From Candidatus Peregrinibacteria bacterium (GTDB lineage: Bacteria > Patescibacteriota > Gracilibacteria > UBA1369 > PNNO01): DNA of 32,000 bases. Each line of letters starts with the position of its first letter. Position 1 is the stretch's first letter. Below are positions 5,787 through 24,719 of the stretch, in pieces. The notes under the pieces are model-generated. The model was not told the origin of the DNA. It did not search any database and saw only the letters and a list, made by a program, of their open reading frames with translations. Location of the stretch: positions 6,211 to 38,210 of the forward strand of contig WJKT01000042.1 of assembly GCA_014728955.1 (NCBI GenBank). Direction: 5' to 3'. A program made the position numbers and the translations under genes.

Positions 5787-5789
5787 ACG

Positions 5790-7040
5790 TTATATTTGCA
5801 TTAAGCGAACAATTTTTTTGAGGATTTTTGATAATACTTTTTCTTCACCCAGATATTCCAATCCCAAATTGGCAAGAGAAAGGGGAGTAATGTCCTGCGG
5901 ATCTTTCATCCTCTTTGTTTCATCTACCATATTACTCACCATATTGGGTTTAAGAAAGCTAATATGTGGTTTTTGTGAGAATGGTAATTTTCTAAACCAT
6001 TCTCGTGTCTCGAGAACTTCTTTAATTTCCGGCAGATGAGAACCACCTCCACATAGTAAGATCTTTGAAGGCAGAACATCTATTTCTTCAAATTCCGCTA
6101 AGGTAAGAGCTACTCCCGAGAGCCACACTTCGCAGTCGCTTTTCATCGCTTCGCGAACAATTTTATGTGATTGTTTTTCCAGTTTATCCGAACTATAGGC
6201 GAGTTTTATTTCTTCCGCTTCTTGAAATGAAATATTTAAGCTTTGTGCAAGCCGCTTAGTGAACGTTCGTCCGCCCAGAGTAAACATACGTGTTCCTTCA
6301 ACGCTACCGTTTCTTACAATGGCAATGTCGGTTGTGCCGCCACCAATGTCAATAAAAATAGAAGAAACATTTCCTCCGTCTTCATGACCCATACATCGCG
6401 CAACGGCATAGGGTTCCGCGGTAATAGCCATAAGTTCTTTATCGAGCTCAGCTGCTATGGTTTGTAATGCGCCAAAGTGCACTAGCGGGGCGAAAGCATT
6501 AAAAATACTGATATCAACGTCTTTTCCCTGAAAGCCGATAGGATTGGATACTTTATAACTATCTATTTGAACATCAACGATCGCCGCGTTAACCAGTTTT
6601 ACATCGATTTCGTTATAGCCGGTTTCAAATGCAAGGTCACTGCGGACTTTATCGAATGCCTTCCATTGAATTTTATGTACAATATTTTTTAATTCAGCAA
6701 GATCTATTTTACTGCTTGGCTCACGCCTGCTGTAAGAGAGCGTTGTTGTTGCACCTTTAACCAACTCTCCCGCAATACCCATAATCATCTGATTTGCAGA
6801 AACGCCGGCCATTCGTTCGGCATCCTTAATAGCCTTTTGACAATTGCGAATAACGCCGCCGATATCGGTTACGGCGCCACTTTGCATGTCTCCTAATTTT
6901 TGTTTGTGTCTGCCGACTCCGATAACACGTCCCTTTGTCCCTTCAGAGAGACAAATAAGAGCCTTTACAATTTCGGTGCCGATATCAAGCGCGAGATAGA
7001 TATTTCTACCGCCACTTGCTTTTCGTGTGAAAATAGCCAT
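5790..7040 (-). CDS. ftsA: Cell division protein FtsA (actin-like ATPase)
   Basis: Actin-fold phosphate motifs LALDIGTEIVKALI and FIDIGGGTTDIAIV; C-terminal amphipathic tail KILKKIVRLMQI. I place the start at Met41 of the track ORF (ATG at 7040, MAIFTRKASGG..), giving a typical ~416 aa. The track ORF runs up to 7160. Confidence 0.85.
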   Translation of the reverse strand: MAIFTRKASGGRNIYLALDIGTEIVKALICLSEGTKGRVIGVGRHKQKLGDMQSGAVTDIGGVIRNCQKAIKDAERMAGVSANQMIMGIAGELVKGATTTLSYSRREPSSKIDLAELKNIVHKIQWKAFDKVRSDLAFETGYNEIDVKLVNAAIVDVQIDSYKVSNPIGFQGKDVDISIFNAFAPLVHFGALQTIAAELDKELMAITAEPYAVARCMGHEDGGNVSSIFIDIGGGTTDIAIVRNGSVEGTRMFTLGGRTFTKRLAQSLNISFQEAEEIKLAYSSDKLEKQSHKIVREAMKSDCEVWLSGVALTLAEFEEIDVLPSKILLCGGGSHLPEIKEVLETREWFRKLPFSQKPHISFLKPNMVSNMVDETKRMKDPQDITPLSLANLGLEYLGEEKVLSKILKKIVRLMQI

Positions 7041-7250
7041 TAAATAGGTGAAAAAGCCTTCATAAACTAAGAGCCCATACATTGTATAGAAAGCCCTTCT
7101 GCTGGTCAAGAAGTTAACGGGGATTTTATTGATTGACAGGGACTGAATAGCTGGTATCATTTTTACGTTTTACAATAGACGTTTTTCGTTGAAAAACAGT
7201 CGGTTGTGACATTGTTGATCTTTCAAACCCCGCAGAGAAGGAGAAACGTT

Positions 7251-7469
7251 ATGAAGTATGTCATGCTCAAGCGCATCCGCAACACCTCTGAATTGTGTGT
7301 CATGGATGTCGGCAAGGATGCACAGTTCAACGGTCACGACATAGTGCCGGGGGACTATGTATTCAGCGAGGATCTTGAGGCACTGGTTGATAGTGGGTTC
7401 TCAGTTCTTTGCATGCAAAGCGAAGAGGGCTCTCTTCCGAGAGGTCCGCTTCATCAATATAATAAATGA
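7251..7469 (+). CDS. Small ORF (72 aa) of unknown function, compositionally atypical, antisense to the ddl-ftsA transcription direction
   Basis: ATG at 7251 is preceded by GAAGGAGAAACGTT, a strong SD that is otherwise rare here. GC counted by hand for 7261-7440 is 50-53% against a much lower-GC surrounding sequence (not counted). Many G/C-ending codons (ctc, cgc, atc, aac, acc, ggc). No homolog recognised; it could be non-coding. Confidence 0.35.
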   Translation: MKYVMLKRIRNTSELCVMDVGKDAQFNGHDIVPGDYVFSEDLEALVDSGFSVLCMQSEEGSLPRGPLHQYNK

Positions 7470-10706: not shown

Positions 10707-11408
10707 ATGCCAAATAGATATCAAGAATTGGAAAAACAAATAGGGATAACTTTCGAGAACAAAACCTTACTTGATACCGCCTTTGTGCATAAATCATTTA
10801 TGAATGAATATCATAAAGACGATAAAGAAGATAATGAGCGCCTCGAATTTTTGGGGGATGCTGTTCTTGAGCTTACCGTTACCGAGTATCTATACAAAAC
10901 GTATCCAAAAAAAGATGAAGGCCAGTTAACCAATTGGCGGTCTGCATTAGTAAAAGGAGAGCATCTCGCCGAAGTGGGGAAAGAGCTGAATTTGGGGACG
11001 TATTTATATTTGAGCCACGGAGAAGAAAGATCGGGAGGAAGAAAGAAAAATTATATTTTGGCAAATACCGTAGAGGCTGTCATTGGAGCGCTTTATTTAG
11101 ATAAAGGGTATCGTGTGACACATACATTCATTTCTAAATATATTATTACCAAGTTAGAAAAAATTCTCGAAAAAGGTCTTCATATAGATGCAAAATCACA
11201 TTTGCAAGAATTGTCACAAGAGAAGCTTTCCATTACTCCCGAATATAAACTTCTCAGCGAAAGCGGACCGGATCATGCAAAACGTTTTGTTATGGCAGTC
11301 TTTTTTGGAAATGATAAAGTAGGTAAAGGAGAAGGAAGTAGTAAGCAAAATGCCGAAGAAGATGCGGCTCGTAATGCGCTTGCCGAAATTAATTGGGAAA
11401 AACACTAG
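10707..11408 (+). CDS. rnc: Ribonuclease III
   Basis: RNase III signature ERLEFLGDAVLELTVTEYLY and a C-terminal dsRBD (GPDHAKRF...GEGSSKQNAEEDAARNAL). Confidence 0.95.
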   Translation: MPNRYQELEKQIGITFENKTLLDTAFVHKSFMNEYHKDDKEDNERLEFLGDAVLELTVTEYLYKTYPKKDEGQLTNWRSALVKGEHLAEVGKELNLGTYLYLSHGEERSGGRKKNYILANTVEAVIGALYLDKGYRVTHTFISKYIITKLEKILEKGLHIDAKSHLQELSQEKLSITPEYKLLSESGPDHAKRFVMAVFFGNDKVGKGEGSSKQNAEEDAARNALAEINWEKH

Positions 11409-11414
11409 ACGCGT

Positions 11415-11831
11415 ATGATGATGCATGAGAAATCGTGTGGACTGGTGGTGTACCACAAAAATCTTCATGGGGAGATTGTTTTTTTACTTCTTCATTATCC
11501 CGAAGGGCATTGGGAATTTCCAAAAGGACATGTAGAATCTGATGAAAATGAAAAACAAACGGCATTACGTGAGGTGCAGGAAGAAACCGGTATACAAAAA
11601 GTACATTTTGTTGATGGATTTAAAGAAACAATAGAGTATAGATTCACCCGTAAAGCAACGGTTATCAACAAAGTGGTAACATTTTTTCTTGCGCGCGTGG
11701 ACGCAATGAATATTTCACTTTCTCATGAGCATAAAGCATATAAATGGTTGCCTTTTGACGAAGCGATTAAAACGGTAACCTTTGAAAATGCTCGAAATAT
11801 TTTAAAAAAAGCAAAGCAATTTCTTGCTTGA
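11415..11831 (+). CDS. NUDIX hydrolase (Ap4A-hydrolase-like)
   Basis: Nudix box GHWEFPKGHVESDENEKQTALREVQEETGI (G-x5-E-x7-REUxEExGU). Confidence 0.85.
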   Translation: MMMHEKSCGLVVYHKNLHGEIVFLLLHYPEGHWEFPKGHVESDENEKQTALREVQEETGIQKVHFVDGFKETIEYRFTRKATVINKVVTFFLARVDAMNISLSHEHKAYKWLPFDEAIKTVTFENARNILKKAKQFLA

Positions 11832-11887
11832 GCGACTCTTTTTTTCTATAGTGGGCATAGGTAATTTATCCCTTAATAATATATATA

Positions 11888-13369
11888 ATGCGCGTATCGT
11901 ATTCTAAAGCACCGAGTGCTAAGCCTGACATGCTTGTTTGTCCCGTTTTCGATCATGGAAAAAAGAAAAGTATCGACCATCCGGCAGTAAGAAAAGCTGT
12001 GGGAAAAATGAAGAAAGATAAGTTGTTTCAAGCTAAGAACGGTACGAGTGTTATGCTATATCCTTCTTCAAAGAATCTGCCGAAACGATTACTTGTTATT
12101 GGTCTGGGAAAGAAATCAAAAGCGTCTGAGACGAAGGTACGTAATACGTTGGCGAAACTATTAAAGGGATATCAAAAAAAAGATATTAATTCTATTGCAC
12201 TGCTTACGTGTACGGATATTAATCAGTACTTGCAGGCGGTTGTTGAAGGAATGTTGCTTATTAATTACAATCCCGCCCAATATAAGACGGGAAAAAATCG
12301 TAAAAAAGTGCAGGAAACGTTATTTAAATCATTAACCATTGTTGGATCTGATATTACTGCTGATGAGAGGAAAGCGGTTAAAAGAGCACAAGTGCTGAGC
12401 GAATCGGTTGACGTTGTGCGTGATCTGGTTAATGGAGCGCCTAATCATATTACTGTCGATGCATTTGCGGATAAGGCTAAAAAAATTGCAAAAAAGAACA
12501 AATATTCGATAAAAGTATATAACAAATCGTGGATTACCAAAAAAGGTATGGGGGCCCTACTTAGTGTAAACAGTGGTTCGGGCAGTAAGTCTGCACGATT
12601 GGTGGTTATGGAATATAAGCCGAAAAAGAAATCAAAAAAAGCCCCTATTTTATTGGTAGGGAAGGGGCTGATTTTTGATGCAGGAGGGTATAATCTAAAG
12701 CCCTCAAAATATATTGAAGATATGCATCAGGATAAGGCGGGAGGATCCTTGGTTGTTGGTGTTTTCAATGCGCTAAAAGCATTAAATATTAATCGCCGTG
12801 TTATCGGGATTGTTCCGTTAACGGAAAATTTAATCGATGCGGATGCTCAAAAACCATCGGATGTCGTTACCAGTTATTCAGGGAAAACCGTTGAAATACG
12901 AAATACCGATGCGGAAGGAAGAATGATTTTAGCTGATGCGCTTACGTATGGTATTGAAACATATAAACCTGAGTATACTATTGATTTTGCAACATTGACG
13001 GGAGCATGTGTTGTTGCTCTTGGTGATAGATATGCAGGGTTGATGGGGAATAATGAATCATTGGTAGAGAAGATTAAAAAAGCCGGTGATAATACCGATG
13101 AACTTGCATGGAAAATGCCGATTCATGATGATTTTAGAGAAGCAATGAAAGGAAAGGTTGCCGATTTGCGAAATATTGATGATGAGACCAGTAGTATGGC
13201 GGGTGCTTCAAAGGCTGCCGCTTTTCTGGAGCATTTTGTGGGAAAGAATAAATGGGCTCATCTGGATATAGCGGGCGTTGCCTATAATAAAAAACCGAAA
13301 GATATCGATCACCCCTTTGCAACCGGATATGGTGTGCGGATGATGATCGACTTTTTAGAGAATTGCTAA
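11888..13369 (+). CDS. pepA: Leucyl aminopeptidase (M17 family)
   Basis: VGKGLIFDAGGYNLKP and the M17 signature NTDAEGRMILADAL. Confidence 0.9.
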   Translation: MRVSYSKAPSAKPDMLVCPVFDHGKKKSIDHPAVRKAVGKMKKDKLFQAKNGTSVMLYPSSKNLPKRLLVIGLGKKSKASETKVRNTLAKLLKGYQKKDINSIALLTCTDINQYLQAVVEGMLLINYNPAQYKTGKNRKKVQETLFKSLTIVGSDITADERKAVKRAQVLSESVDVVRDLVNGAPNHITVDAFADKAKKIAKKNKYSIKVYNKSWITKKGMGALLSVNSGSGSKSARLVVMEYKPKKKSKKAPILLVGKGLIFDAGGYNLKPSKYIEDMHQDKAGGSLVVGVFNALKALNINRRVIGIVPLTENLIDADAQKPSDVVTSYSGKTVEIRNTDAEGRMILADALTYGIETYKPEYTIDFATLTGACVVALGDRYAGLMGNNESLVEKIKKAGDNTDELAWKMPIHDDFREAMKGKVADLRNIDDETSSMAGASKAAAFLEHFVGKNKWAHLDIAGVAYNKKPKDIDHPFATGYGVRMMIDFLENC

Positions 13370-15336: not shown

Positions 15337-16638
15337 TTATGTTCCCCACGTGTCTAGGGCTTCTTGTAATGCCTTATGTGATTGCGCATATTCTTTTAGA
15401 GGGGTATCGGACATAGCAGCATGTACCGCTTGCATAATAGCTTGTGCTCCCATTGCGGTGCCGCCCGGATGGCCATGACATCCTCCGCCCATTTGACAGA
15501 CGATATCTTTTCCCATTGCTTTAACAACATGAGGAATTTTCCCGGGATATAATCCGCCTGAAGCTACAGCAACAACCGGTTTCATCCCATACCATTCCTG
15601 GCCGAGGGTTTCCATTTCTTTGTTTGGTTCAACGCTATCTTTTTCGAGCGCTTCCACAATAACCATGGTTTCTTTTTCGCCTCCTTCCATTTTCCCTGCA
15701 CCGGCGGTTCCGGTATGAAGAAGGTCGACGCCAAGCATACGATACACTTTTGCCAGAACAAGCATTGAAATGGTAAATCCCGGCTGGCGTGTAATTGCTC
15801 CGTGCATAGCTCGGTGTGCGTGAATAATTTGTCCGGTGTTTTTTCGTCTATACGTTTCCACCGCCGAAAAACCGAGGGTGACAACATCAAGCATACAAAC
15901 CTCACCACCGTGCTTTTTCACTACATCGCTTCGTCGCATCATCTCATCAAAATGTGAATGAGTAATATTAGCAAGATATATTTTTTTGTGCCCCGTTTCT
16001 TGTTCGGCTTTATCTCTCATTTTAAATGTTAGTTTTATTCGCGTGTCAAAATCATTAAATGATTGTGATGTAAGATTCTCATCATCTTTTACAATATCAA
16101 GTCCTTCTCCTTCGTTCCCCGACCAGGCCTGATAGCCAACTTTAGCATGCTGCTCACTGGTAAGTCCTACTTTTGGTTTAATAATTGTTCCGGTAAAAGG
16201 ACGGTCGTGTACATCCGCAATAGCCCGAACTCCTTCGATTCCGTGAGCGGGACCCGGAAATTTTTCAATAATGTCCTTGGGGAATCTGATATCGCAAACT
16301 CTCAAACTTTCCAAAATTTTCATGCCGAGAATATTTCCGCAAATTGACGATAATATGCCCGACATATTGCTAACCTCAAAAAGACCTATTGGGTAGGCGA
16401 TAGTAGCTAATTCCCGCTCTTTGTCGATAGAAATAACGTGCGGTTTTAATTGATGTGCGATTTTCTCGTTCATTGTTGAAATTTTTGTCCATGTACCTAT
16501 TGATGATTCCGCGGCGAGTTGTTCAGCGGCTTCTTCGTACGATACGCCTTGTTTTGGCGTATATTTGTACAAGCAGACGACATCGCTTTCCGCCGGCTTA
16601 TAATCGGGATCATAGTAATTGATTTGTTCGTATTGCAT
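15337..16638 (-). CDS. rbcL: RuBisCO large subunit, form III-like (archaeal/CPR type; form III versus II/III not resolvable by eye)
   Basis: AAESSIGTWT, GTIIKPKVGL, the carbamylation-site VKDDENL, IHAHRAMHGA, GTAGAGKMEGG, ASGGLYPG and QMGGGCHGHPGG all align with the Thermococcus form III enzyme as I recall it. No small subunit or phosphoribulokinase (PRK) gene is nearby. Confidence 0.9.
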   Translation of the reverse strand: MQYEQINYYDPDYKPAESDVVCLYKYTPKQGVSYEEAAEQLAAESSIGTWTKISTMNEKIAHQLKPHVISIDKERELATIAYPIGLFEVSNMSGILSSICGNILGMKILESLRVCDIRFPKDIIEKFPGPAHGIEGVRAIADVHDRPFTGTIIKPKVGLTSEQHAKVGYQAWSGNEGEGLDIVKDDENLTSQSFNDFDTRIKLTFKMRDKAEQETGHKKIYLANITHSHFDEMMRRSDVVKKHGGEVCMLDVVTLGFSAVETYRRKNTGQIIHAHRAMHGAITRQPGFTISMLVLAKVYRMLGVDLLHTGTAGAGKMEGGEKETMVIVEALEKDSVEPNKEMETLGQEWYGMKPVVAVASGGLYPGKIPHVVKAMGKDIVCQMGGGCHGHPGGTAMGAQAIMQAVHAAMSDTPLKEYAQSHKALQEALDTWGT

Positions 16639-16734: not shown

Positions 16735-17628
16735 TTATGGACGCTTTTTGATTTCGCGTTCCTGAAACTGATTGCCGGTAATAACAATGTAAACAATAGC
16801 AAAATACGGTATTGCAATAGGAAGAAAGCTTGCGCCGCCAACCAAAATGGTGAGTAGTAGTCCAATGGCAATAATAGAAGAAATAAAGCGTTCCAGAACG
16901 CCCAAAGCAAGGAGTAATCCTATAAGAATACCAAAGATGCCGGTATTAAAAATTAACAGCTCATGAGAGAAATTTTGTAAGCCGAAGATGCTTTGCATAA
17001 TGTTGAGAAGTGGCCTTTCAGCAAGGAATTGTATTGCCGGGTCCGGATTAAGTATATGATGATGGAGGAAAATCATAATAAGTCCTGCGCCGGTAATAAA
17101 ACGTAAAATCGGGAAAGCGTATTTCCGATAACGATCTAAAAATGACTGTTTGTCGACCGGATGAAAGAAAAAGGTGAAGCTAAGAACGTCACGATGAATA
17201 ATAAACAAGAAGATCCCGATTCCTAAAAAGACTGAATAATCAAGTACTTTAAGTGGCGGGAAGAAAAAGAATCCGCCGATAAAAAGTGCGATAATACCAA
17301 TGGTGCACAGGCGGGTAAATGTGCCGAGAATAAGGCCGAGACCGATAATGATTTGTGCGTAGCTGAAAATGGTATGGGCAAGACTGTCATGTAAAGCTAT
17401 GCCCGGAGCAAACAGATAGTTTTGAAAACCACTAACAATAAGTAGTATTCCAACGGCAATAGAAAGCACGGTAGCATCCAAAAAAGCGCCGGAGCGTAAT
17501 ATTTCGGCCAATTTTTGTATTGCATTGTTTTTTCGTGCACCATATTCAACAAAAAGTGCCGTCAAAAAAAGAAAAACGGCGACAACTGTTGGTACGATAT
17601 ACCAAGCCAATGAGCTGTTTTCAGTCAT
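16735..17628 (-). CDS. Polytopic membrane protein (~8 TM), unknown function; faint DoxX-like character
   Basis: Hydrophobic throughout. Starts 20 nt after the ferredoxin stop and ends 96 nt before the RuBisCO start on the same strand. No firm family motif. Confidence 0.7.
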   Translation of the reverse strand: MTENSSLAWYIVPTVVAVFLFLTALFVEYGARKNNAIQKLAEILRSGAFLDATVLSIAVGILLIVSGFQNYLFAPGIALHDSLAHTIFSYAQIIIGLGLILGTFTRLCTIGIIALFIGGFFFFPPLKVLDYSVFLGIGIFLFIIHRDVLSFTFFFHPVDKQSFLDRYRKYAFPILRFITGAGLIMIFLHHHILNPDPAIQFLAERPLLNIMQSIFGLQNFSHELLIFNTGIFGILIGLLLALGVLERFISSIIAIGLLLTILVGGASFLPIAIPYFAIVYIVITGNQFQEREIKKRP

Positions 17629-17648
17629 ACAAAAAGGTGTGAAGTTAT

Positions 17649-17837
17649 TTATTCTTTCCAGCTGATAGCTGAAACAGGGCAGGCATCGATAGCCGATTGA
17701 ATTTTTTCTTCATCATCACCGGTAGGATTGACGGCTTTTGATTTACCGTTATCTTGCATTTCAAAAACTTTTGGACATAGTTGTACGCAAAGGCCACATC
17801 CTATGCACGTATCTTGATCAACGTGGGCAGCTTTCAT
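17649..17837 (-). CDS. Small single-cluster [4Fe-4S]/[3Fe-4S] ferredoxin (62 aa)
   Basis: MKAAHVDQDTCIGCGLCVQLCP....ACPVSAISW has the CxxCxxC...CP pattern of Thermotoga/Pyrococcus-type ferredoxins. I place the start at Met37 of the track ORF (ATG at 17837); the upstream extension is AT-rich and implausible. Confidence 0.8.
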   Translation of the reverse strand: MKAAHVDQDTCIGCGLCVQLCPKVFEMQDNGKSKAVNPTGDDEEKIQSAIDACPVSAISWKE

Positions 17838-17936
17838 GAAAACCAGGTTAATTAATAAACATTTCTTCAGAATAATAAAATTATATTTAATTTTAAGCAA
17901 GTTTTCATTACTATAAAACTGTAACAACAATGTATT

Positions 17937-18314
17937 ATGAAGCATCGGTTCTCACATCAACGTGCGTTAATACGGAAGATATTAACCGATTACAAAGGAC
18001 ATTTAAGTGCTGAAGAAATTTATGAACGTGTTCTTAAACACGAGCCTTCCATGAGCTTGGGAACTGTATATCGTAATTTACATGTATTGGAGGGGATGGG
18101 AGAAATACGAAAATTAATGGTGAAGGAAAAAGCTTTATATGAAGGGGAAAGAAAGCCTCATCATCATATAATATGTACACGATGCGGAATGGTAAAAAAT
18201 GTATATAAACCGGCCCATTTAAAATGTGAAAAATGTCTTTCCTGGGTTCATGATTTTACGGTTGAGGAAGCATTTATCACAGCGTACGGCGTATGTAAAC
18301 AATGCAAAAAATAA
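17937..18314 (+). CDS. fur: Fur-family metalloregulator (Fur/Zur/PerR type not resolved)
   Basis: Winged-helix segment HLSAEEIYERV...SLGTVYRNLHVLEGMGEI, an HHHIICTRCG metal/Zn motif and C-terminal CKQC. Divergent from the ferredoxin gene. Confidence 0.85.
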   Translation: MKHRFSHQRALIRKILTDYKGHLSAEEIYERVLKHEPSMSLGTVYRNLHVLEGMGEIRKLMVKEKALYEGERKPHHHIICTRCGMVKNVYKPAHLKCEKCLSWVHDFTVEEAFITAYGVCKQCKK

Positions 18315-18316
18315 TA

Positions 18317-18661
18317 CTATCGTTGATGCGCAACCTGCTTTAATTGGTTCGCAAGAAGTGTTCCCTGTTTTTTTGTAATATTATGATTTTTTGAGGTTAA
18401 AATGCCGTTTTCATATTCAACGCCAAGGAATACATGTAAGGTGAAAAGATCATCTTCGTCCAGCCCCTGTAACATAAGCCTTTCCTGGAGCTCGTGTGTC
18501 ACGTCATCAAGGTGATAGGCGTGGTAAGCGCAAATATGGTCTAGATAGTCACTAAACTCATTGACGTTACTTATTTTTGATAAAGTTTTTTTGACGCTAT
18601 ACGGGAGCGATCTCGGGGGAGGGAAATCATCGGACGGAGGAATGTCGTCAGAAATACTCAT
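18317..18661 (-). CDS. Hypothetical acidic protein, 114 aa
   Basis: ORF with host-like composition. No motif recognised. Confidence 0.45.
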   Translation of the reverse strand: MSISDDIPPSDDFPPPRSLPYSVKKTLSKISNVNEFSDYLDHICAYHAYHLDDVTHELQERLMLQGLDEDDLFTLHVFLGVEYENGILTSKNHNITKKQGTLLANQLKQVAHQR

Positions 18662-18748: not shown

Positions 18749-19135
18749 ATGCCCATGAAAACCATATATCTTGTTGGCAATGCACTGGTCCCGGAAGATG
18801 CACTGCCGTTGCACATAAAAGAACAATTAGTAAAGCAATTTCCGAATATAACCTTTAAAGAATTCGATCCAACGGAGAATCTTCCTGAGGATAGTCCGGA
18901 GCTTACAATGATAGACACGGTTCAGGGGATTGATCGTGTTTGTGTATTTCGGGAGATTGATTCATTTTCCAGCCAAAAAGCTTATTCGATGCATGATTTT
19001 GATCTTGGTTGGCAATTAAAGCTATATAAAAAAATGGGAAAGGTTGAAAAGGTAACGATTATTGGCATTCCCATGGGAATGGATGAAAACACGGCCTATG
19101 CCCAAGTAGCCAAGGAAATCGGTCGTTTAATGTAA
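18749..19135 (+). CDS. [NiFe]-hydrogenase maturation endopeptidase (HycI/HyaD-like)
   Basis: Aligns by eye with E. coli HycI: IYLVGNALVPEDAL versus LLCVGNSMMGDDGAG, MIDTVQG versus IVDATDMG, YSMHDFDLG versus TTHNMPLNY, VTIIGIP versus VIFLGIQP. The acidic, Asp and His metal-ligand positions are kept. The adjacent large subunit has a cleavable C-terminal extension. Confidence 0.6.
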   Translation: MPMKTIYLVGNALVPEDALPLHIKEQLVKQFPNITFKEFDPTENLPEDSPELTMIDTVQGIDRVCVFREIDSFSSQKAYSMHDFDLGWQLKLYKKMGKVEKVTIIGIPMGMDENTAYAQVAKEIGRLM

Positions 19136-19147
19136 AGATTTATAGGA

Positions 19148-20143
19148 TTAGAGGAGGCGTGTGATTTTATTTGATGCATCTCGCACTTCAAGGCGTATCT
19201 GTTCTTCGGTGCTGCCCGAGGGGTATTGAAGATGAAAAGCAGTTTCGTTCGGTTGTTTTTTGTAGCGGCGATTTAATGGTTCACGATGGGTGATAAGCGA
19301 ATCATCCGGATGAAGAACGTGTGATTGAAATACGCGGACTCTTGTAGCGATACAAACGTGATAGGGAAGATCCGAATGCAGATTGTCTTTGAGCGTGACG
19401 TCACCTTCTATTATATGGTCCGGATCGGTTGTTGGTGTATCTTTGGAAACTGTAAAAAACGTTCCCAGGTCAACGGGACGACGATGATCATTTTTTGTTT
19501 TGTGTAAAAGAACACTGAGAGATATTTCTTGTGGAATTATGATAGTTGAGTCTGACGCAAACTGTTTGGCGTTCTCGCTAATTGCAAGTTGTGGTTCATA
19601 AAGCAGTGCTCTGCCCATTGCTTCGCTTATTACAAGATCCGGTGTAGATGATGGAGTATAGGTTGCTGCATCATGATGCACAATGGTAGGGAAGTACTCA
19701 GTAAGGTCAAGTTGTTCAATAAGTTTTTGAACGCATTGTAAAGCGCCTTCTTGGATATCAACCAAAGTGAATTGGATTTCTTGTGATGAAAAATGATGTG
19801 TAAGGGGAAGTGCGAGCGTAGCAAAAGGACCACATCCCATATAGGCGATAGAAAGCGTTTTGTAGGGGTGTTTTTCTTGCAGCGTTTTAATGGCTGCATA
19901 AATACCCTGTATAAAAATAGTGGTTCGTTCGGTGTCAAGCATGCAATGGGCTGCTTCAACCGGGGCAATACATGATCCTTTGGGGGTGGTAATATGTTCT
20001 TGATGTTCCCATAAATCTTGTTCAATAGCATCTTCCAGCTCATGAAAAAGTTTGATAATTGAAACACGTGTTTTTTTGCTGCTGGGAGGTTCAATAATAT
20101 GCTGTGCCGTTTCTTCCAGTTGCTCGGTGAGATATTCTTTCAT
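19148..20143 (-). CDS. Class I SAM-dependent methyltransferase-like protein with PRMT-like motifs, 331 aa
   Basis: Motif I-like LSIAYMGCGPFATLAL, acidic post-I FTLVDIQE, and DLVISEAMGRALLYE, which resembles the PRMT double-E loop (xxIISEWMGYxLLxE). Same strand as the hydrogenase large subunit, starting 60 nt after it. Confidence 0.45.
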   Translation of the reverse strand: MKEYLTEQLEETAQHIIEPPSSKKTRVSIIKLFHELEDAIEQDLWEHQEHITTPKGSCIAPVEAAHCMLDTERTTIFIQGIYAAIKTLQEKHPYKTLSIAYMGCGPFATLALPLTHHFSSQEIQFTLVDIQEGALQCVQKLIEQLDLTEYFPTIVHHDAATYTPSSTPDLVISEAMGRALLYEPQLAISENAKQFASDSTIIIPQEISLSVLLHKTKNDHRRPVDLGTFFTVSKDTPTTDPDHIIEGDVTLKDNLHSDLPYHVCIATRVRVFQSHVLHPDDSLITHREPLNRRYKKQPNETAFHLQYPSGSTEEQIRLEVRDASNKITRLL

Positions 20144-20203
20144 AGCGAAAAAATAAGAGTAAAAAGGAAGTTATTGTATATATACTCTTATATTTGTCAA
20201 TTT

Positions 20204-21514
20204 CTATTTGGATTTTTTCCAATTAATGGTGAGGAAGTGTGTTGCACAACTCATGCAGGGGTCATATGCGCGGATAAGCTTTTCAATTTCCATGCGCACA
20301 TGATCTTTGTCCATATTTTCTCCATCTTTGTCCAGATAGGTTTGCACCAAATGCCGTATATCATTTTCTATATTAATTTGATTCTGAGCCGTAGGGACAA
20401 CTACTTCAGCATCGGTAATTTTCCCTTCTTTATCGAGCTGTATATAGTGATATAGCGTTCCTCGCGGCGCTTCTACAACGCCAACACCGTCTCCCGCTTT
20501 GATAGGAATGCTATCAGGCGGTTCAGGGGTAACGGTATGGGTCTCAATAAGCTCTATCGCATGGTCGATTGAATGCAGTATTTCAATAGCTTGAGCTAGA
20601 TTATTGTGATACACATCAATCGAAGGGAAACGATCAATATATTTTTTTGCATTTTTTTTTGTATTGTCGTGAAGTGCTTCACTATTCACATTAAGGCGGG
20701 CCAACGAGCCAACCATATATTCTTTTCCTTGTAAGGTGTAAGCCTTGGCTGTTGAATAAGGAATAACCACTTCTTTTAGCTGTGTTCGAAATTCCCGTTC
20801 CGGCACGCAAAAATTACCTTCACTGCAGAGAGCGGGTCCCTCCAAAAAGCTGAAATCTTTCGTTTTTAAACCGACAAATTTTGTTTTCCGTTCAAGGCTA
20901 AATGGGCAGTTGTCAAAAATATCCATTAAAAATAACACTTTTTCCCGTATGGATTTTAGTTCTTTTTTGCTGTTTTCCAATTGCTCTTTTGTTGGATATT
21001 TTACAAATCCGCCAACCATAGGGAAAGGAGCGTGAACGGCTCTGCCTCCGACGTACGTTGATAAGTTATTCCCGGCTCTTTTAATGTCAAACATGTCATG
21101 CAAAAGCTTATGTTCGGTTTTGTCGTTTTCATCAAAGGCCAATACTGAATCTTTTCCGATAACATCTGGTAATGCAAAAACATATAAATGTAATGCGTGA
21201 TCCCGTATCATCAGGCCATAGGTAAGCAGTTTACGTAACATGGTTGTTTGCTCTGAAGGTTCATAATTAAGAGCATCTTCAATAGCTTCAATAGCGGCCA
21301 ATAGGTGCGCTATACTACAGGTTCCGCATATGCGTGAAAGCAATTGAGGAACTTGTTTATAGGGTTTTCCTAAGATGGCTTTTTCAAAAAAACGTTTGTT
21401 TTCCATAATCTTAAATTCAACTCCTTCGATTTTATTGTCTTTGATATAGACATCCATATCTAAATGCCCTTCAATTTTTGAAAGCCCTTCTATGGAAATA
21501 TTTACCTGATGCAT
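20204..21514 (-). CDS. [NiFe]-hydrogenase large subunit (soluble, group 3-like)
   Basis: N-terminal IEGLSKIEGHLDMDV, L1 motif RICGTCSIAH and C-terminal DPCMSCATH, giving all four Ni-Fe cysteines. A 10-aa extension FLTINWKKSK follows; extensions like this are removed by a maturation protease. Confidence 0.9.
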   Translation of the reverse strand: MHQVNISIEGLSKIEGHLDMDVYIKDNKIEGVEFKIMENKRFFEKAILGKPYKQVPQLLSRICGTCSIAHLLAAIEAIEDALNYEPSEQTTMLRKLLTYGLMIRDHALHLYVFALPDVIGKDSVLAFDENDKTEHKLLHDMFDIKRAGNNLSTYVGGRAVHAPFPMVGGFVKYPTKEQLENSKKELKSIREKVLFLMDIFDNCPFSLERKTKFVGLKTKDFSFLEGPALCSEGNFCVPEREFRTQLKEVVIPYSTAKAYTLQGKEYMVGSLARLNVNSEALHDNTKKNAKKYIDRFPSIDVYHNNLAQAIEILHSIDHAIELIETHTVTPEPPDSIPIKAGDGVGVVEAPRGTLYHYIQLDKEGKITDAEVVVPTAQNQINIENDIRHLVQTYLDKDGENMDKDHVRMEIEKLIRAYDPCMSCATHFLTINWKKSK

Positions 21515-21520
21515 AAACGC

Positions 21521-22039
21521 TTATGAGTGATTAGTAATAGAGTCTGATTGATCGATAATCTTGAATTTTTTGAGGTATTTATCGACTACTTCTATAAATG
21601 TTTTTTCTATCATGGGGCATCCTGGAACTTTATCGTCAACATCAACAAGTTCATGTAGTGCATAGACCGTATCGGCCTGATCAAACTGCAGCAGATATGG
21701 TGAGATTTCTTTTTTCAGTTTGTCGTCAAAATTGTTTCGGTGCCCGGAAGGGAGCCCGGTAACAGCACATGAACCGATAGCAACAATATACTGAGAATTT
21801 TTTCTTATTTTAAGAAGCTTTTCTTTATCTTTATCCGAAGCGATAGCTCCTTCAACAAAGGCAACATCAATATCTGAAAGAGTATTGTTGCTTTGCAATA
21901 CATTGGCATGTCGGAATTCGAAGAGTTTTTTGAATGCAAAAAAATTATCGTTGAGCATTTCAACGAACATAATGGTTGAATCCTCGCAACAGGTAAAGGA
22001 AAACCAGCCTATTTTTAATTTTTTTTGCTTTGTCGTCAT
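21521..22039 (-). CDS. Minimal [NiFe]-hydrogenase small subunit (172 aa, proximal cluster only)
   Basis: From Met15 of the track ORF (ATG at 22039): WFSFTCCEDS, IGSCAVTGLPSG, VPGCP. That is exactly four Cys and no Tat signal. The stop is 6 nt before the large-subunit start. Confidence 0.8.
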   Translation of the reverse strand: MTTKQKKLKIGWFSFTCCEDSTIMFVEMLNDNFFAFKKLFEFRHANVLQSNNTLSDIDVAFVEGAIASDKDKEKLLKIRKNSQYIVAIGSCAVTGLPSGHRNNFDDKLKKEISPYLLQFDQADTVYALHELVDVDDKVPGCPMIEKTFIEVVDKYLKKFKIIDQSDSITNHS

Positions 22040-22086
22040 CAACGCTAAACATATCGTACTATTCCTTTGTACGCAAGACAAAGCTA

Positions 22087-23460
22087 TTAAAAATAAAGAT
22101 CCCGCTCACCTTCTTCTATACGGATGAGACGCTCTTTTGTTTTTTCACGAACATCTTCGGATGGGATGTGATTGGTATAGTGCGTAATGATTGCTTCACC
22201 TTTTTCTTTTACGGAAGGAGAGGCGTAATCCTCCAGATATTCTTTAAGTGTTAAAATAGCGTTGGGGCGGCAAAAATTATGGATTTCCCCCGGTTTGGCA
22301 ATGTCCATAAAATCTTGTCCGGTTCGACCGAGGCGATAACAGGCAGTACAGAAACTCGGAAGCAATCCTTCATCCAAAATGCCCTCAATTACCTCGTCAA
22401 CACTGCGTTCATCGGAAAGGGTGAATTGTTTGAGGTCTTTTTGTCTGCCATACCCTCCGGGTGAAGTGCATGATGCCGCACTGGTCTGAGAAATTCCTAT
22501 CTCAAATGCTTTTTTGCGGACAGAAGGCGTTTCGCGTGTTGAAATAATCATGCCGGTATACGGCGTGCTTAAACGCAAAATAGCGATAATTTTTAAAATT
22601 TCTTTTTCACTGACTGTATGTGGCCATTTATCTTTAACTGTCTCGGCAGGCTGTAAGCGCGGAACCGAAAAGGTATGAGGGCCAACACCGTATTTTTTAT
22701 CCAAATACTGCCCGTGTGAAATTAACGCGAGAGTATCATACCGCCAGTCATATAGGCCATACAAAACTCCTAAGCCAATATCGTCTATACCAGCTTCAAA
22801 CGCTCTGTCATGAGCAAAAAGCTGTCTTTCATAATCAGCTTTTGGTCCTTTGTGCAGTTTTTCGTAGGTTGGTCGGTGATACGTTTCTTGAAACAATTGA
22901 TAGGTGCCGATGCCAACGTCTTTCAATTTTTTATAATCCTCGACAGATGTAGCGGCAATATTAACATTTACTCTCCTAATATCTCCTTTTCCTTCTTTTA
23001 CCGAGTAAATTCTTTTAATGACATCAATAACATAATCGATAGGTGTTTCACCCGGGTGCTCGCCAAATTCCAATAAAAGCCGTTTATGACCCATATTAAT
23101 AAGAACCCGTGTTTGTTGTTCTACTTCATCCAGACTTAATTTTTTACGTTTCATTTTATTGCGAATGTGGAATCCACAATATTCGCAGTCGTTTACGCAA
23201 TAATTTGATACGTAAAGTGGTGCAAACAGAACCAGTCTTTCTCCATAAATTTCTTTTTTGATTTTCCACGCCGATTTGAACATATTTTCTGTGTATTTTG
23301 GATCGGCGTTTATCAAAACTGCAGATTCCTCTAAAGAAAGTCCTTTCATTTTTTCGGCTTTTGATAGGACTTGCATTATTTGATTTTCTGTTGGATTTTT
23401 CGTTTCTTCAAGGAGTTTCTCAATCTTTTCCGAGTCAAATATCTCACGTATTTTTGACAT
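22087..23460 (-). CDS. hydG: Radical SAM tyrosine lyase HydG ([FeFe]-hydrogenase-type CO/CN synthase)
   Basis: CX3CX2C at C88/C92/C95 (YVSNYCVNDCEYCGF), then FQETYH, SVPRL and SAAS. The C-terminal auxiliary-cluster motif PSFCTACYRLGRTGQDFM...C(RPNA) is CX2CX22C by my count; HydG has it and ThiH lacks it. Confidence 0.85.
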   Translation of the reverse strand: MSKIREIFDSEKIEKLLEETKNPTENQIMQVLSKAEKMKGLSLEESAVLINADPKYTENMFKSAWKIKKEIYGERLVLFAPLYVSNYCVNDCEYCGFHIRNKMKRKKLSLDEVEQQTRVLINMGHKRLLLEFGEHPGETPIDYVIDVIKRIYSVKEGKGDIRRVNVNIAATSVEDYKKLKDVGIGTYQLFQETYHRPTYEKLHKGPKADYERQLFAHDRAFEAGIDDIGLGVLYGLYDWRYDTLALISHGQYLDKKYGVGPHTFSVPRLQPAETVKDKWPHTVSEKEILKIIAILRLSTPYTGMIISTRETPSVRKKAFEIGISQTSAASCTSPGGYGRQKDLKQFTLSDERSVDEVIEGILDEGLLPSFCTACYRLGRTGQDFMDIAKPGEIHNFCRPNAILTLKEYLEDYASPSVKEKGEAIITHYTNHIPSEDVREKTKERLIRIEEGERDLYF

Positions 23461-24719
23461 TAATCTAGGGTTAGTTTTTCCTCAAGCATCTTATAACTCT
23501 CATCAGTATTGTAAAGACCGTATTTTTCCCACATTCTGGTATTGAGCGCCTCTTTTCGCTTATATATCTCGTAATGTTCTGCATATTTTTCCGGTGTTAG
23601 ATTGAACATAAGTGAGTTTGCACCTGCCTGAATTGCATTTTTCCTTCCGTTAACCGGATCAAGTGTCTCAAGTGCAGTAACTACAGGAATTTTTGTATCT
23701 TTCATTTCCAGTCTTAAAATCGAAATCATTTTTAAATTCATCTCTTCCGTTCCGGGATTGTCATTCTCAAAAGGGGTGTGTTTGCAGGGAACAAAAGGTC
23801 CCATAGAAATCATGTCGAACTTGTTTTCGCGCATTGTAATTATGTCGTCGGCCAGATCAGAAATAGTTTGTCCGGGTAGTCCAATAATCGACCCTGAGGC
23901 AATAAAATAATTGAGTTCCTTCATAAATTTTAAGTGCTCTATGCGAGTTTTTAAATCTTTCCCGTTTTTATGAATTTTCTTAAAAAGATCGGGATTTGAA
24001 CTTTCAAATCTAAACAAAACGCCATTTGCTCCGGCTTCTCGCAGTTCTTTATACGTCTCATAATCTCTTTGTCCGATGCTCATAAATATAAACACCCGGG
24101 TTTTTTCTTTGATTTTTTTGACCATTTCAACCAGCTTTTCTTTCGTGTAGTATGGATCATCTCCAGATTGAAGAACTATTAATTTATAACCTTTTCCTCG
24201 CACAGCTTCATCAACGGTTTCAACAATTTCATCGATTGGCATTCTGTATCTTTTAATTGTCGCGTTCTCTTTCCTGAGGCCGCAATAAGCGCAGTCATTA
24301 ATACAGTAATTTGAAAATTCAATAATTCCGTGGATGCAGAAAAAATCGTTAATGTTCGCTCGGCGCATCATATCGGCTTCGCTAAAAAGGGCTTCTGCCT
24401 CACGGCCTTCGCACTTTAACAAATATTCAATCTCTTCTTTTTCAAGAGGTCTTTCTTTAGAATTTTTAATAATTTTGACAAATTGGGGATCCAATGTATC
24501 CGGATCTGTTTTTTGAACGTGTTCAAGCAGCTCCAAAATCTCTTTTGCATCTTTTTTATCGACTTTTTGGACGGCAATATCCGACATATACAAAACCCAG
24601 TCACCAACTGTTACCTCGGAGACAGCTTTTATAGAGATGGTTTTTTGAACGTCTCCTTGTTTGATGACGGCCTTATTTCCATGTATTTTAACAACTTTTG
24701 CCGGGATGGTAAGGCACAT
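23460..24719 (-). CDS. hydE: Fusion protein: N-terminal HypC/HupF-like domain (aa 1-~70) joined to radical SAM HydE (aa ~95-419)
   Basis: MCLTIPAKVVKIHGNKAVIKQGDV...VGDWVLYMSDIAVQKVDKKDAKEILELL matches the HypC pattern MC(L/I)xxPxxxxxIxGNxAxV...VGxWVLxHxGxA, including the essential Cys2. The rest aligns closely with Thermotoga HydE as I recall it: IIEFSNYCINDCAYCGLR (C139/C143/C146), KRYRM..EIVE, IVLQSGDDPY, GSIIGLPGQTISDLADD, FDMISMGPFVP. The stop overlaps the hydG start (TAATG). Confidence 0.85.
   Translation of the reverse strand: MCLTIPAKVVKIHGNKAVIKQGDVQKTISIKAVSEVTVGDWVLYMSDIAVQKVDKKDAKEILELLEHVQKTDPDTLDPQFVKIIKNSKERPLEKEEIEYLLKCEGREAEALFSEADMMRRANINDFFCIHGIIEFSNYCINDCAYCGLRKENATIKRYRMPIDEIVETVDEAVRGKGYKLIVLQSGDDPYYTKEKLVEMVKKIKEKTRVFIFMSIGQRDYETYKELREAGANGVLFRFESSNPDLFKKIHKNGKDLKTRIEHLKFMKELNYFIASGSIIGLPGQTISDLADDIITMRENKFDMISMGPFVPCKHTPFENDNPGTEEMNLKMISILRLEMKDTKIPVVTALETLDPVNGRKNAIQAGANSLMFNLTPEKYAEHYEIYKRKEALNTRMWEKYGLYNTDESYKMLEEKLTLD

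Follow-up and report, generated by a model that had tools for sequence, protein, structure and literature searches.

How is the iron-carbonyl-cyanide part of a [NiFe] hydrogenase active site built at a locus where the structural genes share an operon not with HypD, HypE and HypF but with HydG and HydE, two enzymes known only for building the cofactor of the [FeFe] hydrogenase? The question is raised by a window of 32,000 nucleotides from an uncultured Candidatus Peregrinibacteria bacterium (assembly GCA_014728955.1, contig WJKT01000042.1, positions 6,211 to 38,210). A preliminary description made from the sequence alone had noted the unusual gene order and proposed a shortcut maturation route, in which radical-SAM-derived Fe-CO/CN is passed through a fused HypC domain to the [NiFe] large subunit. 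Hence, we re-examined each gene of the locus and compared it with related loci from other genomes. The genes were found where they had been placed and the observation itself is confirmed, with one correction on the extent of the operon that is given below.

The first gene of the operon, at 24719-23460 on the minus strand, encodes a HypC::HydE fusion of 419 aa. PF01455 HupF_HypC covers aa 1-65 (69 bits, cut-off 28.5), TIGR00074 scores 60.8 (cut-off 48) and TIGR03956 HydE covers aa 87-392 at 267 bits (cut-off 254.6). The HypC domain spans aa 1-72 (nt 24504-24719), begins MCLTIPAK and retains Cys2 and Pro6. A linker helix follows, and then a radical-SAM HydE barrel from about aa 85 to 419 with the CX3CX2C motif as CINDCAYC. 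In comparison to solved structures, TmHydE scores 242 bits and T. kodakarensis HypC gives an E-value of 7e-11. The AF2 model has a pLDDT of 89 and a pTM of 0.88, and Foldseek matched TmHydE with a TM-score of 0.86-0.90, normalised by the TmHydE chain length. C2, L3 and P6 are invariant in 95 homologues, whereas the residue equivalent to His51 of E. coli HypC is replaced in almost all the fusions aligned.

The start codon of the second gene, at 23460-22087 (minus strand), overlaps the stop codon of the fusion (TAATG). Its 457-aa product is HydG, a radical-SAM tyrosine lyase that builds the Fe(CO)x(CN) synthon; this activity is inferred here from homology. TIGR03955 scores 566 bits (cut-off 312), and T. 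italicus HydG (4WCX) scores 572 bits over the full length at 56% identity. CVNDCEYC and the C-terminal CX2CX22C motif are present, and the His that we take, by residue count in the 4WCX alignment, to be the dangler-iron ligand reported for the published structure is conserved. In a small neighbour-joining tree T. italicus HydG nests among the fusion-linked HydGs, and these therefore do not form a separate family.

The [NiFe] structural genes follow on the same strand. The small subunit starts at an ATG at 22039 and extends to 21521, which gives a product of 172 aa and the 47-nt gap after HydG that had been described earlier, although an upstream TTG at 22081 is also possible (186 aa). PF01058 scores 66.5 bits and the best NCBIfam matches are sulfhydrogenase delta subunits, aligned only to positions 1-154 of 261. 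Only the NuoB-like domain is present and, by length, the part that carries the medial and distal clusters in full-length group-3b delta subunits is missing. The large subunit (21514-20204, minus strand, 436 aa) lies after a 6-nt gap, matches PF00374 and is most like group 3b. Its best NCBIfam models are ShyA and HydA sulfhydrogenase alpha (261 and 250 bits), both below their equivalog cut-offs. It carries the L1 motif RICGTC and the L2 motif DPCMSCATH, followed by a 10-aa C-terminal extension, FLTINWKKSK.

A gene of 128 aa at 18749-19135 on the plus strand, convergent with the operon, is homologous to HycI/HyaD endopeptidases (hhalign against the HycI-type profile: probability 94.5%, E 8e-8), and its invariant D17, D56 and H82 align with invariant Asp, Asp and His columns of that profile. 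It is predicted to remove the C-terminal extension of the large subunit. In the loci examined, large subunits that carry an extension have such a gene nearby, and most that end at the His do not.

Between these lies a gene of 331 aa (20143-19148, minus strand), which the preliminary description had called PRMT-like and had listed with the operon. The gene has no Pfam hit on its own, but a profile of its family finds PRMT7 (3WST, E 8.5e-6) and PRMT1 (E 2.5e-4) as the best solved relatives, and members of this large family (1431 representatives) hit Methyltransf_25, Methyltransf_31 and PRMT5. The description as a PRMT-like class-I methyltransferase is therefore defensible. However, the gene is probably not in the operon, as the 60-nt gap after the large subunit holds a sigma-70-like promoter match at 20200-20173 (minus strand; TTGACA-16-TACAAT, 11/12), and the gene follows the large subunit in only one other locus, L009 (L numbers denote the loci compared here). 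The promoter match is only a hint since the total number of promoter-like sites in the region is no higher than in shuffled sequences. The gene is not a conserved part of the system.

Pfam searches of the window detected no HydA, HydF or HypA/B/D/E/F anywhere in the 32 kb, and no ORF of 60 aa or more carries a Walker-A motif.

We next asked whether the linkage is conserved, its absence from related genomes having been named beforehand as a result that would count against the proposal. A total of 110 non-redundant HypC::HydE loci (1.26 Mb) from Patescibacteria, Brocadiaceae/Planctomycetota, Thermodesulfobacteriota, Syntrophales and others were compared, and the opposite was found. HydG lies within 300 nt downstream of the fusion in 66 of 82 loci. 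A [NiFe]-specific gene (large or small subunit, HypA, HypB or endopeptidase) lies within 10 kb in 36 of 63 loci with at least 8 kb of flank: the large subunit in 30, HypA/B in 10 and the endopeptidase in 14. Conversely, roughly 16% of loci have the fusion without an adjacent HydG (L136 and L137 are examples), and in 27 of the 63 well-flanked loci no [NiFe] gene lies within 10 kb. No HypD, HypE or HypF was found in these neighbourhoods by phmmer, six-frame tblastn or signature motifs, and no HydF-like GTPase or HydF Cys/His motif was found. Small HydA-like genes occur near the fusion in two loci only: L069, one of the 110, where the gene lies between the fusion and HydG, and L003, a separately retrieved locus, where it lies 9 kb away. 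When contigs were matched on their size, 7 of the 120 best large-subunit clusters were placed on contigs that also carry a fusion, against 1 of the 120 HydA-like clusters.

The module accompanies at least three kinds of [NiFe] hydrogenase: group-3b-like four-subunit enzymes (L011, L014, L016 and L036), a group-1-like [NiFeSe] enzyme with cytochrome b (L027) and a sensor-like enzyme followed by a hybrid histidine kinase (L031-L033). HypA-HypB sit directly beside fusion-HydG in L031, L032, L033, L027, L025, L048, L098 and L106. Several loci read like a hyp operon in which hypD/E/F have been exchanged for hydE/hydG; L031 has the order fusion-HydG-HypA-HypB-small subunit-large subunit, and L027 has small subunit-large subunit (Sec)-cytochrome b-endopeptidase-HypA-HypB-fusion-HydG. 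In some loci the module occupies the place that hypCDEF holds in a textbook hyp cluster.

The reading that we consider somewhat more likely than not is that HydG and the HypC::HydE fusion form a radical-SAM module dedicated to building the iron-carbonyl-cyanide part of the [NiFe] active site, which takes the place of HypD, HypE and HypF in these lineages. In this view, HydG would cleave tyrosine and assemble CO and CN- on its dangler iron as a cysteine-bound Fe(CO)2(CN) synthon, as is established for characterised HydG enzymes. The HydE barrel would then take up the synthon and use a 5'-deoxyadenosyl radical to free the Fe(CO)x(CN)y unit from its cysteine carrier, as is established for T. maritima HydE. 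The product would not dimerise for delivery to HydF; instead, the mononuclear unit would be captured by Cys2 at the free N-terminus of the tethered HypC domain. A CO/CN exchange, perhaps using the extra cyanide from the second turnover of HydG, would give Fe(CN)2(CO), a step that is speculative. The known synthon has two CO and one CN and the [NiFe] site needs the reverse ratio, which speaks against this reading. The HypC domain would dock on the apo large subunit and deliver the iron unit, nickel would be inserted, by HypA/HypB where those genes are present, and the 128-aa endopeptidase would finally remove the C-terminal extension. HypC is a [NiFe]-specific chaperone, and it is fused here at the N-terminus, the only position that keeps Cys2 free.

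The gene identities, the spacing of the four operon genes at -1, 47 and 6 nt and the recurrence of the linkage across several phyla are results of the sequence comparison, whereas the chemistry is inference throughout: the HydG and HydE activities from homology and motif conservation (HydG keeps every motif needed to make Fe-CO/CN), the final delivery and processing steps from homology to the canonical pathway, and the capture of the iron unit by Cys2 by reasoning alone. The interpretation offered in the preliminary description is accordingly supported in part. The absence of hypDEF was shown only within 10 kb, and hypD/E/F, hydF or hydA may lie elsewhere in these genomes. The loci with the fusion but no adjacent HydG, the well-flanked loci with no [NiFe] gene, the HydA-like genes of L003 and L069 and the nesting of T. 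italicus HydG among the fusion-linked HydGs also speak against the reading. Local absence is weak evidence on its own, as the closest relatives of this large subunit, in Gracilibacteria and DPANN archaea, also lack hypDEF nearby yet have no HydG or HydE. Literature searches found no prior description of such a system, and the findings point to an undescribed way of making the [NiFe] active site.

Of the alternatives, the one that survives best, although we regard it as unlikely, is that the module supplements a canonical Hyp pathway encoded elsewhere, with HydG and HydE providing only the CO ligand, or a pre-carbonylated iron, to a HypC paralogue. The anaerobic source of CO in [NiFe] maturation is otherwise not known. 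The same synteny supports a role in [NiFe] maturation, extra stand-alone HypC genes sit next to the fusion in L039, L041, L042, L077-L079 and L127, and the Gracilibacteria and DPANN relatives show that hypDEF need not be near the hydrogenase genes. However, in eight or more loci hypA-hypB are adjacent to fusion-HydG, at the place where hypCDEF would be expected, and hypDEF was not seen once in 1.26 Mb. HydG also makes cyanide as well as CO, so a second cyanide pathway would be redundant.

More doubtful is the possibility that HydG and HydE do their textbook job for an [FeFe] hydrogenase encoded elsewhere, which in CPR might be one of the ~284-aa HydA-like proteins, with the HypC-like domain standing in for HydF and the closeness to [NiFe] genes reflecting a general clustering of hydrogen-metabolism genes. 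In its favour, HydG and HydE score as equivalogs of the [FeFe] maturases, HydG is close to T. italicus HydG, HydA-like genes lie near the fusion in L003 and L069, and a family of ~284-aa PF02906-only proteins is widespread in Patescibacteria. Against this stand the rarity of HydA-like genes beside the fusion compared with the [NiFe] large subunit, the single HydA-like cluster matched to a fusion contig, and HydF, which was never seen in the loci searched. No Fe_hyd_lg_C or HydF family appeared among the 25 commonest of the 191 Pfam families tallied for the 27 loci without [NiFe] genes. This reading explains neither the fused [NiFe]-specific chaperone with its invariant Cys2 nor the adjacency to hypA/hypB and endopeptidase genes in Planctomycetota and 'Deltaproteobacteria' MAGs.

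Least likely is that the module makes a different iron-ligand unit or small molecule for these hydrogenases or another target (for example, a non-standard ligand set on the [NiFe] iron) and resembles either known pathway only partially, for although the CO:CN ratio, the replaced His51 and the unusually small hydrogenase of the window would be in keeping with this, the large subunits linked to the module belong to ordinary classes with standard L1 and L2 motifs and HydG and HydE keep their catalytic motifs.

Among known systems, the locus shares with HydE/HydF/HydG maturation of the [FeFe] H-cluster [2Fe] subsite a HydG and a HydE domain that pass the NCBIfam equivalog cut-offs, but HydE carries the HypC domain, no HydF or standard HydA was found in the window or the 110 related loci, and the neighbours are [NiFe] genes. 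With HypABCDEF-plus-endopeptidase maturation it shares the HypC domain, the endopeptidase and the large-subunit extension, and HypA and HypB are adjacent in the non-CPR loci; it differs in that HypC is fused to a radical-SAM enzyme, that HypD (scaffold) and HypE/HypF (cyanide from carbamoyl phosphate) are not in any locus, and that the window itself has no HypA or HypB. The sulfhydrogenase alpha and delta models are the best family matches for the two subunits, as in group 3b (sulf)hydrogenases of the Pyrococcus furiosus SHI/SHII type, and related loci in other CPR and Thermodesulfobacteriota have the full beta, gamma, delta and alpha set, but the window enzyme has two subunits only, with no beta or gamma, and its scores fall far below the equivalog cut-offs. 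The minimal two-subunit [NiFe] hydrogenases of Gracilibacteria and DPANN archaea, whose large subunits are 52-59% identical, carry two HypC-family genes and no HydG or HydE at their loci, and share with the window the layout of a small subunit (~160 aa) plus a large subunit (~428 aa) and a convergent ORF of 111-128 aa in the endopeptidase position.

Four tightly packed genes lie on the minus strand of the window. The first encodes a HypC::HydE fusion (24719-23460), in which PF01455 covers residues 1-65 (69 bits against a cut-off of 28.5), TIGR00074 scores 60.8 against a cut-off of 48, and the HydE model TIGR03956 scores 267 bits against an equivalog cut-off of 254.6, which is a marginal pass. 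The second is HydG (23460-22087), for which TIGR03955 scores 566 bits against a cut-off of 312 and whose ATG overlaps the TAA of the fusion as TAATG. The small subunit gene (21521-22039) follows after a 47-nt gap and encodes 172 aa from the ATG at 22039, although an upstream TTG at 22081 is a possible start, while the large subunit gene (21514-20204) follows after a further 6 nt. Pfam searches of the 32 kb returned no HydA, HydF or HypA/B/D/E/F, and no ORF of 60 aa or more carries a Walker-A motif. The preliminary description, which had reported these genes in this order and the absence of the remaining maturases from the window, was therefore accurate at the level of the genes.

The sequences of the two radical-SAM enzymes suggest that they are functional. 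HydG aligns end to end with Thermoanaerobacter italicus HydG (4WCX) at 572 bits and 56% identity, and it contains the radical-SAM CX3CX2C motif (CVNDCEYC) and the C-terminal CX2CX22C auxiliary-cluster motif CTACYRLGRTGQDFMDIAKPGEIHNFC. The histidine that we take to hold the dangler iron, by residue count in the 4WCX alignment and with reference to the published structure, is also conserved. The HydE portion aligns with T. maritima HydE (TmHydE) at 242 bits, and an AlphaFold model of the fusion built from 95 homologues is confident (pLDDT 89, pTM 0.88) and matches TmHydE structures in Foldseek with a TM of 0.86-0.90, normalised by the TmHydE chain length.

The N-terminal 71 residues of the fusion match T. 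kodakarensis HypC at an E-value of 7e-11. The domain begins MCLTIP, with the cysteine directly after the initiator methionine, and both Cys2 and Pro6 are invariant in the 95 sequences aligned. Unlike the stand-alone HypC/HupF proteins of about 80-100 aa that partner with HypD, this domain is fused to a 340-aa radical-SAM domain, and HypD was not found in any of the loci compared. The histidine equivalent to His51 of E. coli HypC is replaced by Met, Ile, Val, Ala or Asn in almost all the fusions aligned, with a Tyr just before it, whereas the stand-alone HypC encoded in L041 (the L numbers denote the individual loci retrieved for comparison) retains the His.

The large subunit matches PF00374 at 124 bits and carries the L1 (RICGTC) and L2 (DPCMSCATH) nickel-iron ligand motifs, followed by a 10-residue C-terminal extension. 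A placement in group 3b, whose members are alpha-delta-beta-gamma tetramers, is only tentative: its best family models are ShyA and HydA (sulfhydrogenase alpha), both with scores below their cut-offs, and no beta or gamma subunit genes occur in the window. The hydrogenase (21521-22039 and 20204-21514) is thus a bare heterodimer with a small subunit reduced to the NuoB-like domain, unlike the four-subunit enzymes in other CPR loci. A single-cluster ferredoxin gene at 17649-17945 encodes a possible electron partner.

The convergent 128-aa ORF (18749-19135) has no Pfam hit and only a weak single-sequence NCBIfam hit to a NiFeSe maturation protease (E 0.004). However, a profile built from this protein and five orthologues aligns to HycI-type endopeptidases with an hhalign probability of 94.5% (E 8e-8), and the invariant residues D17, D56 and H82 align with invariant Asp, Asp and His columns of the HycI-type profile, in agreement with the metal-binding triad of the HycI/HyaD endopeptidases. 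Across the loci, large subunits that carry a C-terminal extension have such a gene nearby, while most of those that end exactly at the L2 histidine do not. Many module-linked large subunits are of the latter type, and no endopeptidase gene was seen in their loci (L011, L013, L014, L016, L019, L021, L031-L033, L036, L037, L039, L042 and L046).

The 331-aa gene product was listed in the preliminary account, after the large subunit, as a PRMT-like methyltransferase. It belongs to a large family with 1431 representatives at E-values up to 0.001, and the family profile finds PRMT7 and PRMT1 as its best solved relatives (E 8.5e-6 and 2.5e-4, respectively). E174 and E183 are invariant, while Pfam scores are below cut-off, and membership of the protein arginine methyltransferases proper, with their class-I methyltransferase core, double-E loop and beta-barrel, is only tentative. 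The label 'PRMT-like' is therefore defensible, but we rejected the gene as a part of the system because it follows the large subunit only in the window and in L009, and because it is preceded by an 11/12 sigma-70-like, promoter-like site.

Loss of linkage in related genomes had been named beforehand as a result that would refute the proposed system, and hence we examined whether the linkage is conserved. The fusion architecture is common, as the best 120 clusters (54-100% identity) all carry PF01455 plus PF04055. Scans of species-representative genomes (53 loci) and JGI metagenomes (76 loci), each limited to 10 kb of flank, gave 110 loci and 1.26 Mb of sequence after removal of duplicates. HydG was found within 300 nt downstream of the fusion in 66 of the 82 loci with at least 1.5 kb of downstream sequence. 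Among the 63 loci with at least 8 kb of flank, 36 had a [NiFe]-specific gene within 10 kb, with the large subunit in 30, HypA or HypB in 10 and the endopeptidase in 14. As a rough expectation, by reasoning and not by a computed control, a genome with a few hydrogenase loci per several Mb would give only one to a few large subunits in 1.26 Mb of random sequence. HypD, HypE and HypF were sought by phmmer, by six-frame tblastn with the E. coli proteins and by signature motifs, and none was found. An apparent HypF zinc-finger pattern in L040 belongs to a protein with repeated CxxCH haem-binding motifs, most likely a multihaem cytochrome c. As for HydF and HydA, the usual partners of HydG and HydE, a search by motif only found no HydF-like GTPase and no HydF Cys/His motif, and HydA was not found within 10 kb, with the exception of a small HydA-like gene in one of the 110 loci (L069) and another in a separately retrieved locus (L003), which are considered below.

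The hosts include not only CPR lineages (Peregrinibacteria, Moranbacteria, Jorgensenbacteria, Falkowbacteria and Berkelbacteria) but also Brocadiaceae (Kuenenia and 'Ca. Wunengus'), other Planctomycetota, Thermodesulfobacteriota, Syntrophales and groundwater 'Deltaproteobacteria' MAGs, and the linked hydrogenases differ in kind. The operon of L007 lies on a 1.37-Mb CPR chromosome (OY969931.1). Four-subunit group-3b-like enzymes are encoded as beta-gamma-SS-LS directly before fusion-HydG in L014 and L016, and on the opposite strand in L011 and L036. In L027, from a groundwater 'Deltaproteobacteria' MAG, the order is SS-LS-cytochrome b-endopeptidase-HypA-HypB-fusion-HydG. The large subunit of this group-1-like enzyme (5699-7420, plus strand) has an in-frame TGA at the first cysteine of the L2 motif (DP*MACAVH plus a 15-aa extension), which we read as a selenocysteine-containing [NiFeSe] enzyme. 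In L031-L033 the order is fusion-HydG-HypA-HypB-SS-LS-hybrid histidine kinase and the large subunit has no C-terminal extension, which is the layout of H2-sensing hydrogenases. In L027 and L031-L033, the module occupies the place that hypC-D-E-F holds in a textbook hyp cluster. In L044 (11375-19293), from 'Ca. Kuenenia hertensis', a type I restriction-modification system (HsdM, HsdS and HsdR) lies between the fusion gene and hypA-hypB-small subunit, and no HydG lies within 10 kb in either Kuenenia locus (L035 and L044).

Other observations argue against the model put forward in the preliminary description. About 16% of loci have the fusion without an adjacent HydG, including L136 and L137, although L138 shows the full operon. 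Of the 63 well-flanked loci, 27 show no [NiFe] gene within reach, and a Pfam tally of 149 neighbours in these loci showed no hydrogenase family among the 25 most common of 191 families. In L003, a 283-aa PF02906 protein (12109-12829, minus strand) is encoded 9 kb from the fusion. In L069, a CPR metagenome contig that also has [NiFe] small and large subunits downstream, a 217-aa HydA-like ORF (11330-11983, minus strand; motifs SRCP, SPCE and CEGGC; E 1.7e-5 to the mini-HydA profile) sits between the fusion and HydG and could be a carrier or scaffold, or a remnant. A family of ~284-aa proteins made only of the [FeFe]-hydrogenase catalytic domain (PF02906; motifs SPCP, PCxxK and CSGGC) is widespread in Patescibacteria, with source names including Moranbacteria, Buchananbacteria, Staskawiczbacteria and Parcubacteria. 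When the lengths of the longest contigs of the respective hits were matched as a proxy for co-occurrence, only one of the best 120 clusters of this family appeared to share a contig with a fusion, against seven of the best 120 large-subunit clusters, a comparison of low power since it covers only the best 120 hits of each search. Most of these proteins lie on contigs that do not appear among the fusion-bearing ones, which raises the question of how, or whether, they are matured.

The nearest outgroup of the window's large subunit (52-59% identity) is in Gracilibacteria and DPANN archaea (L058, 9486-12803; L059, 8781-11645; and a JGI contig of 927,715 nt). It has the same minimal layout of a small subunit of ~160 aa and a large subunit of ~428 aa, with a convergent ORF of 111-128 aa, and carries two HypC-family genes, one of 65-72 aa and one of 125-185 aa with an N-terminal extension. 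Neither HydG/HydE nor HypD/E/F lies within 10 kb, and in two of the loci pyrimidine and carbamoyl-phosphate genes flank the hydrogenase. Local absence of hypDEF is therefore not diagnostic on its own. The possibility that the [NiFe]-linked HydG genes form a separate clade was rejected, as T. italicus HydG nests among the fusion-linked HydGs in a small neighbour-joining tree. The chemistry of HydG is probably unchanged, but the CO:CN ratio of its known product (2:1) does not match that of the [NiFe] site (1:2).

The functional link between HydG plus HypC::HydE and [NiFe] hydrogenase is strongly supported by conserved synteny across several phyla and several hydrogenase classes, and by the fusion itself. 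The proposal in the preliminary description, that Fe-CO/CN derived from radical-SAM chemistry is passed through the fused HypC domain to the [NiFe] large subunit, is thus supported in part: the gene content, the fusion and its linkage were established from the sequences, whereas the chemistry, the activity of the enzymes and the replacement of HypD/E/F are inferred, the last from flanks of 10 kb and not from whole genomes. On present evidence, we consider replacement of HypD, HypE and HypF by the module to be somewhat more likely than not. A supplementary role, such as that of a CO donor, is unlikely but remains the better of the alternatives, and a conventional role in [FeFe] maturation is less likely still.

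In its fullest form, which we hold only tentatively, this would be a complete alternative pathway for the [NiFe] active site, spread across Patescibacteria, Planctomycetota (including anammox bacteria), Thermodesulfobacteriota and Syntrophales. Both CO and CN- would come from tyrosine through HydG, HydE would process the organometallic iron unit, and the fused HypC domain would hand it straight to the large subunit, such that HypD, HypE, HypF and carbamoyl phosphate would not be needed. Full-text literature searches found no paper describing a HypC::HydE fusion or a role for HydG/HydE in [NiFe] maturation, although most subscription journals were outside their coverage and prior description elsewhere cannot be excluded. 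None of the papers found to mention HypC, HydE and HydG together appeared to address this, and a survey of Clostridium acetogens, a paper on archaeal [FeFe] hydrogenases, a CPR paper and the Kuenenia genome paper with its supplements were not relevant to this point.

The two main hydrogenase classes are generally taught as having unrelated, class-specific cofactor assembly lines. A natural system that wires HydG and HydE into [NiFe] maturation would break that rule, would give a defined enzymatic source for the CO ligand under anoxic conditions, which is not known to have been settled for the canonical pathway, and would suggest an evolutionary bridge between the two machineries. In practical terms, it could offer a two-gene replacement for hypCDEF when [NiFe] hydrogenases are expressed in other hosts. 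It would also mean that 'HydE' and 'HydG' annotations should no longer be read as markers of [FeFe] hydrogenase metabolism in CPR, anammox and deltaproteobacterial MAGs.

A 114-aa protein of unknown function and a Fur/PerR-family regulator (window 16735-18661) are syntenic next to the hydrogenase locus in two other Peregrinibacteria-type loci, L005 (10914-12299) and L050 (18098-18657). A DoxX-like membrane protein is also present in L005, while L050 ends before this position. This arrangement hints at metal- or redox-responsive regulation. Other genes in the window fit its origin from a 38,232-nt contig of Candidatus Peregrinibacteria (CPR/Patescibacteria), as does the complete identity of the fusion and of the large subunit to NCBI proteins from such a MAG. 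These genes encode an S-layer/FlgD-Ig giant protein, FtsA, Ddl, NusB and RNase III, as well as a 433-aa RuBisCO large-subunit homologue (15337-16638, minus strand; PF00016 plus PF02788), which is probably the form II/III enzyme of the nucleoside-salvage pathway described in CPR.
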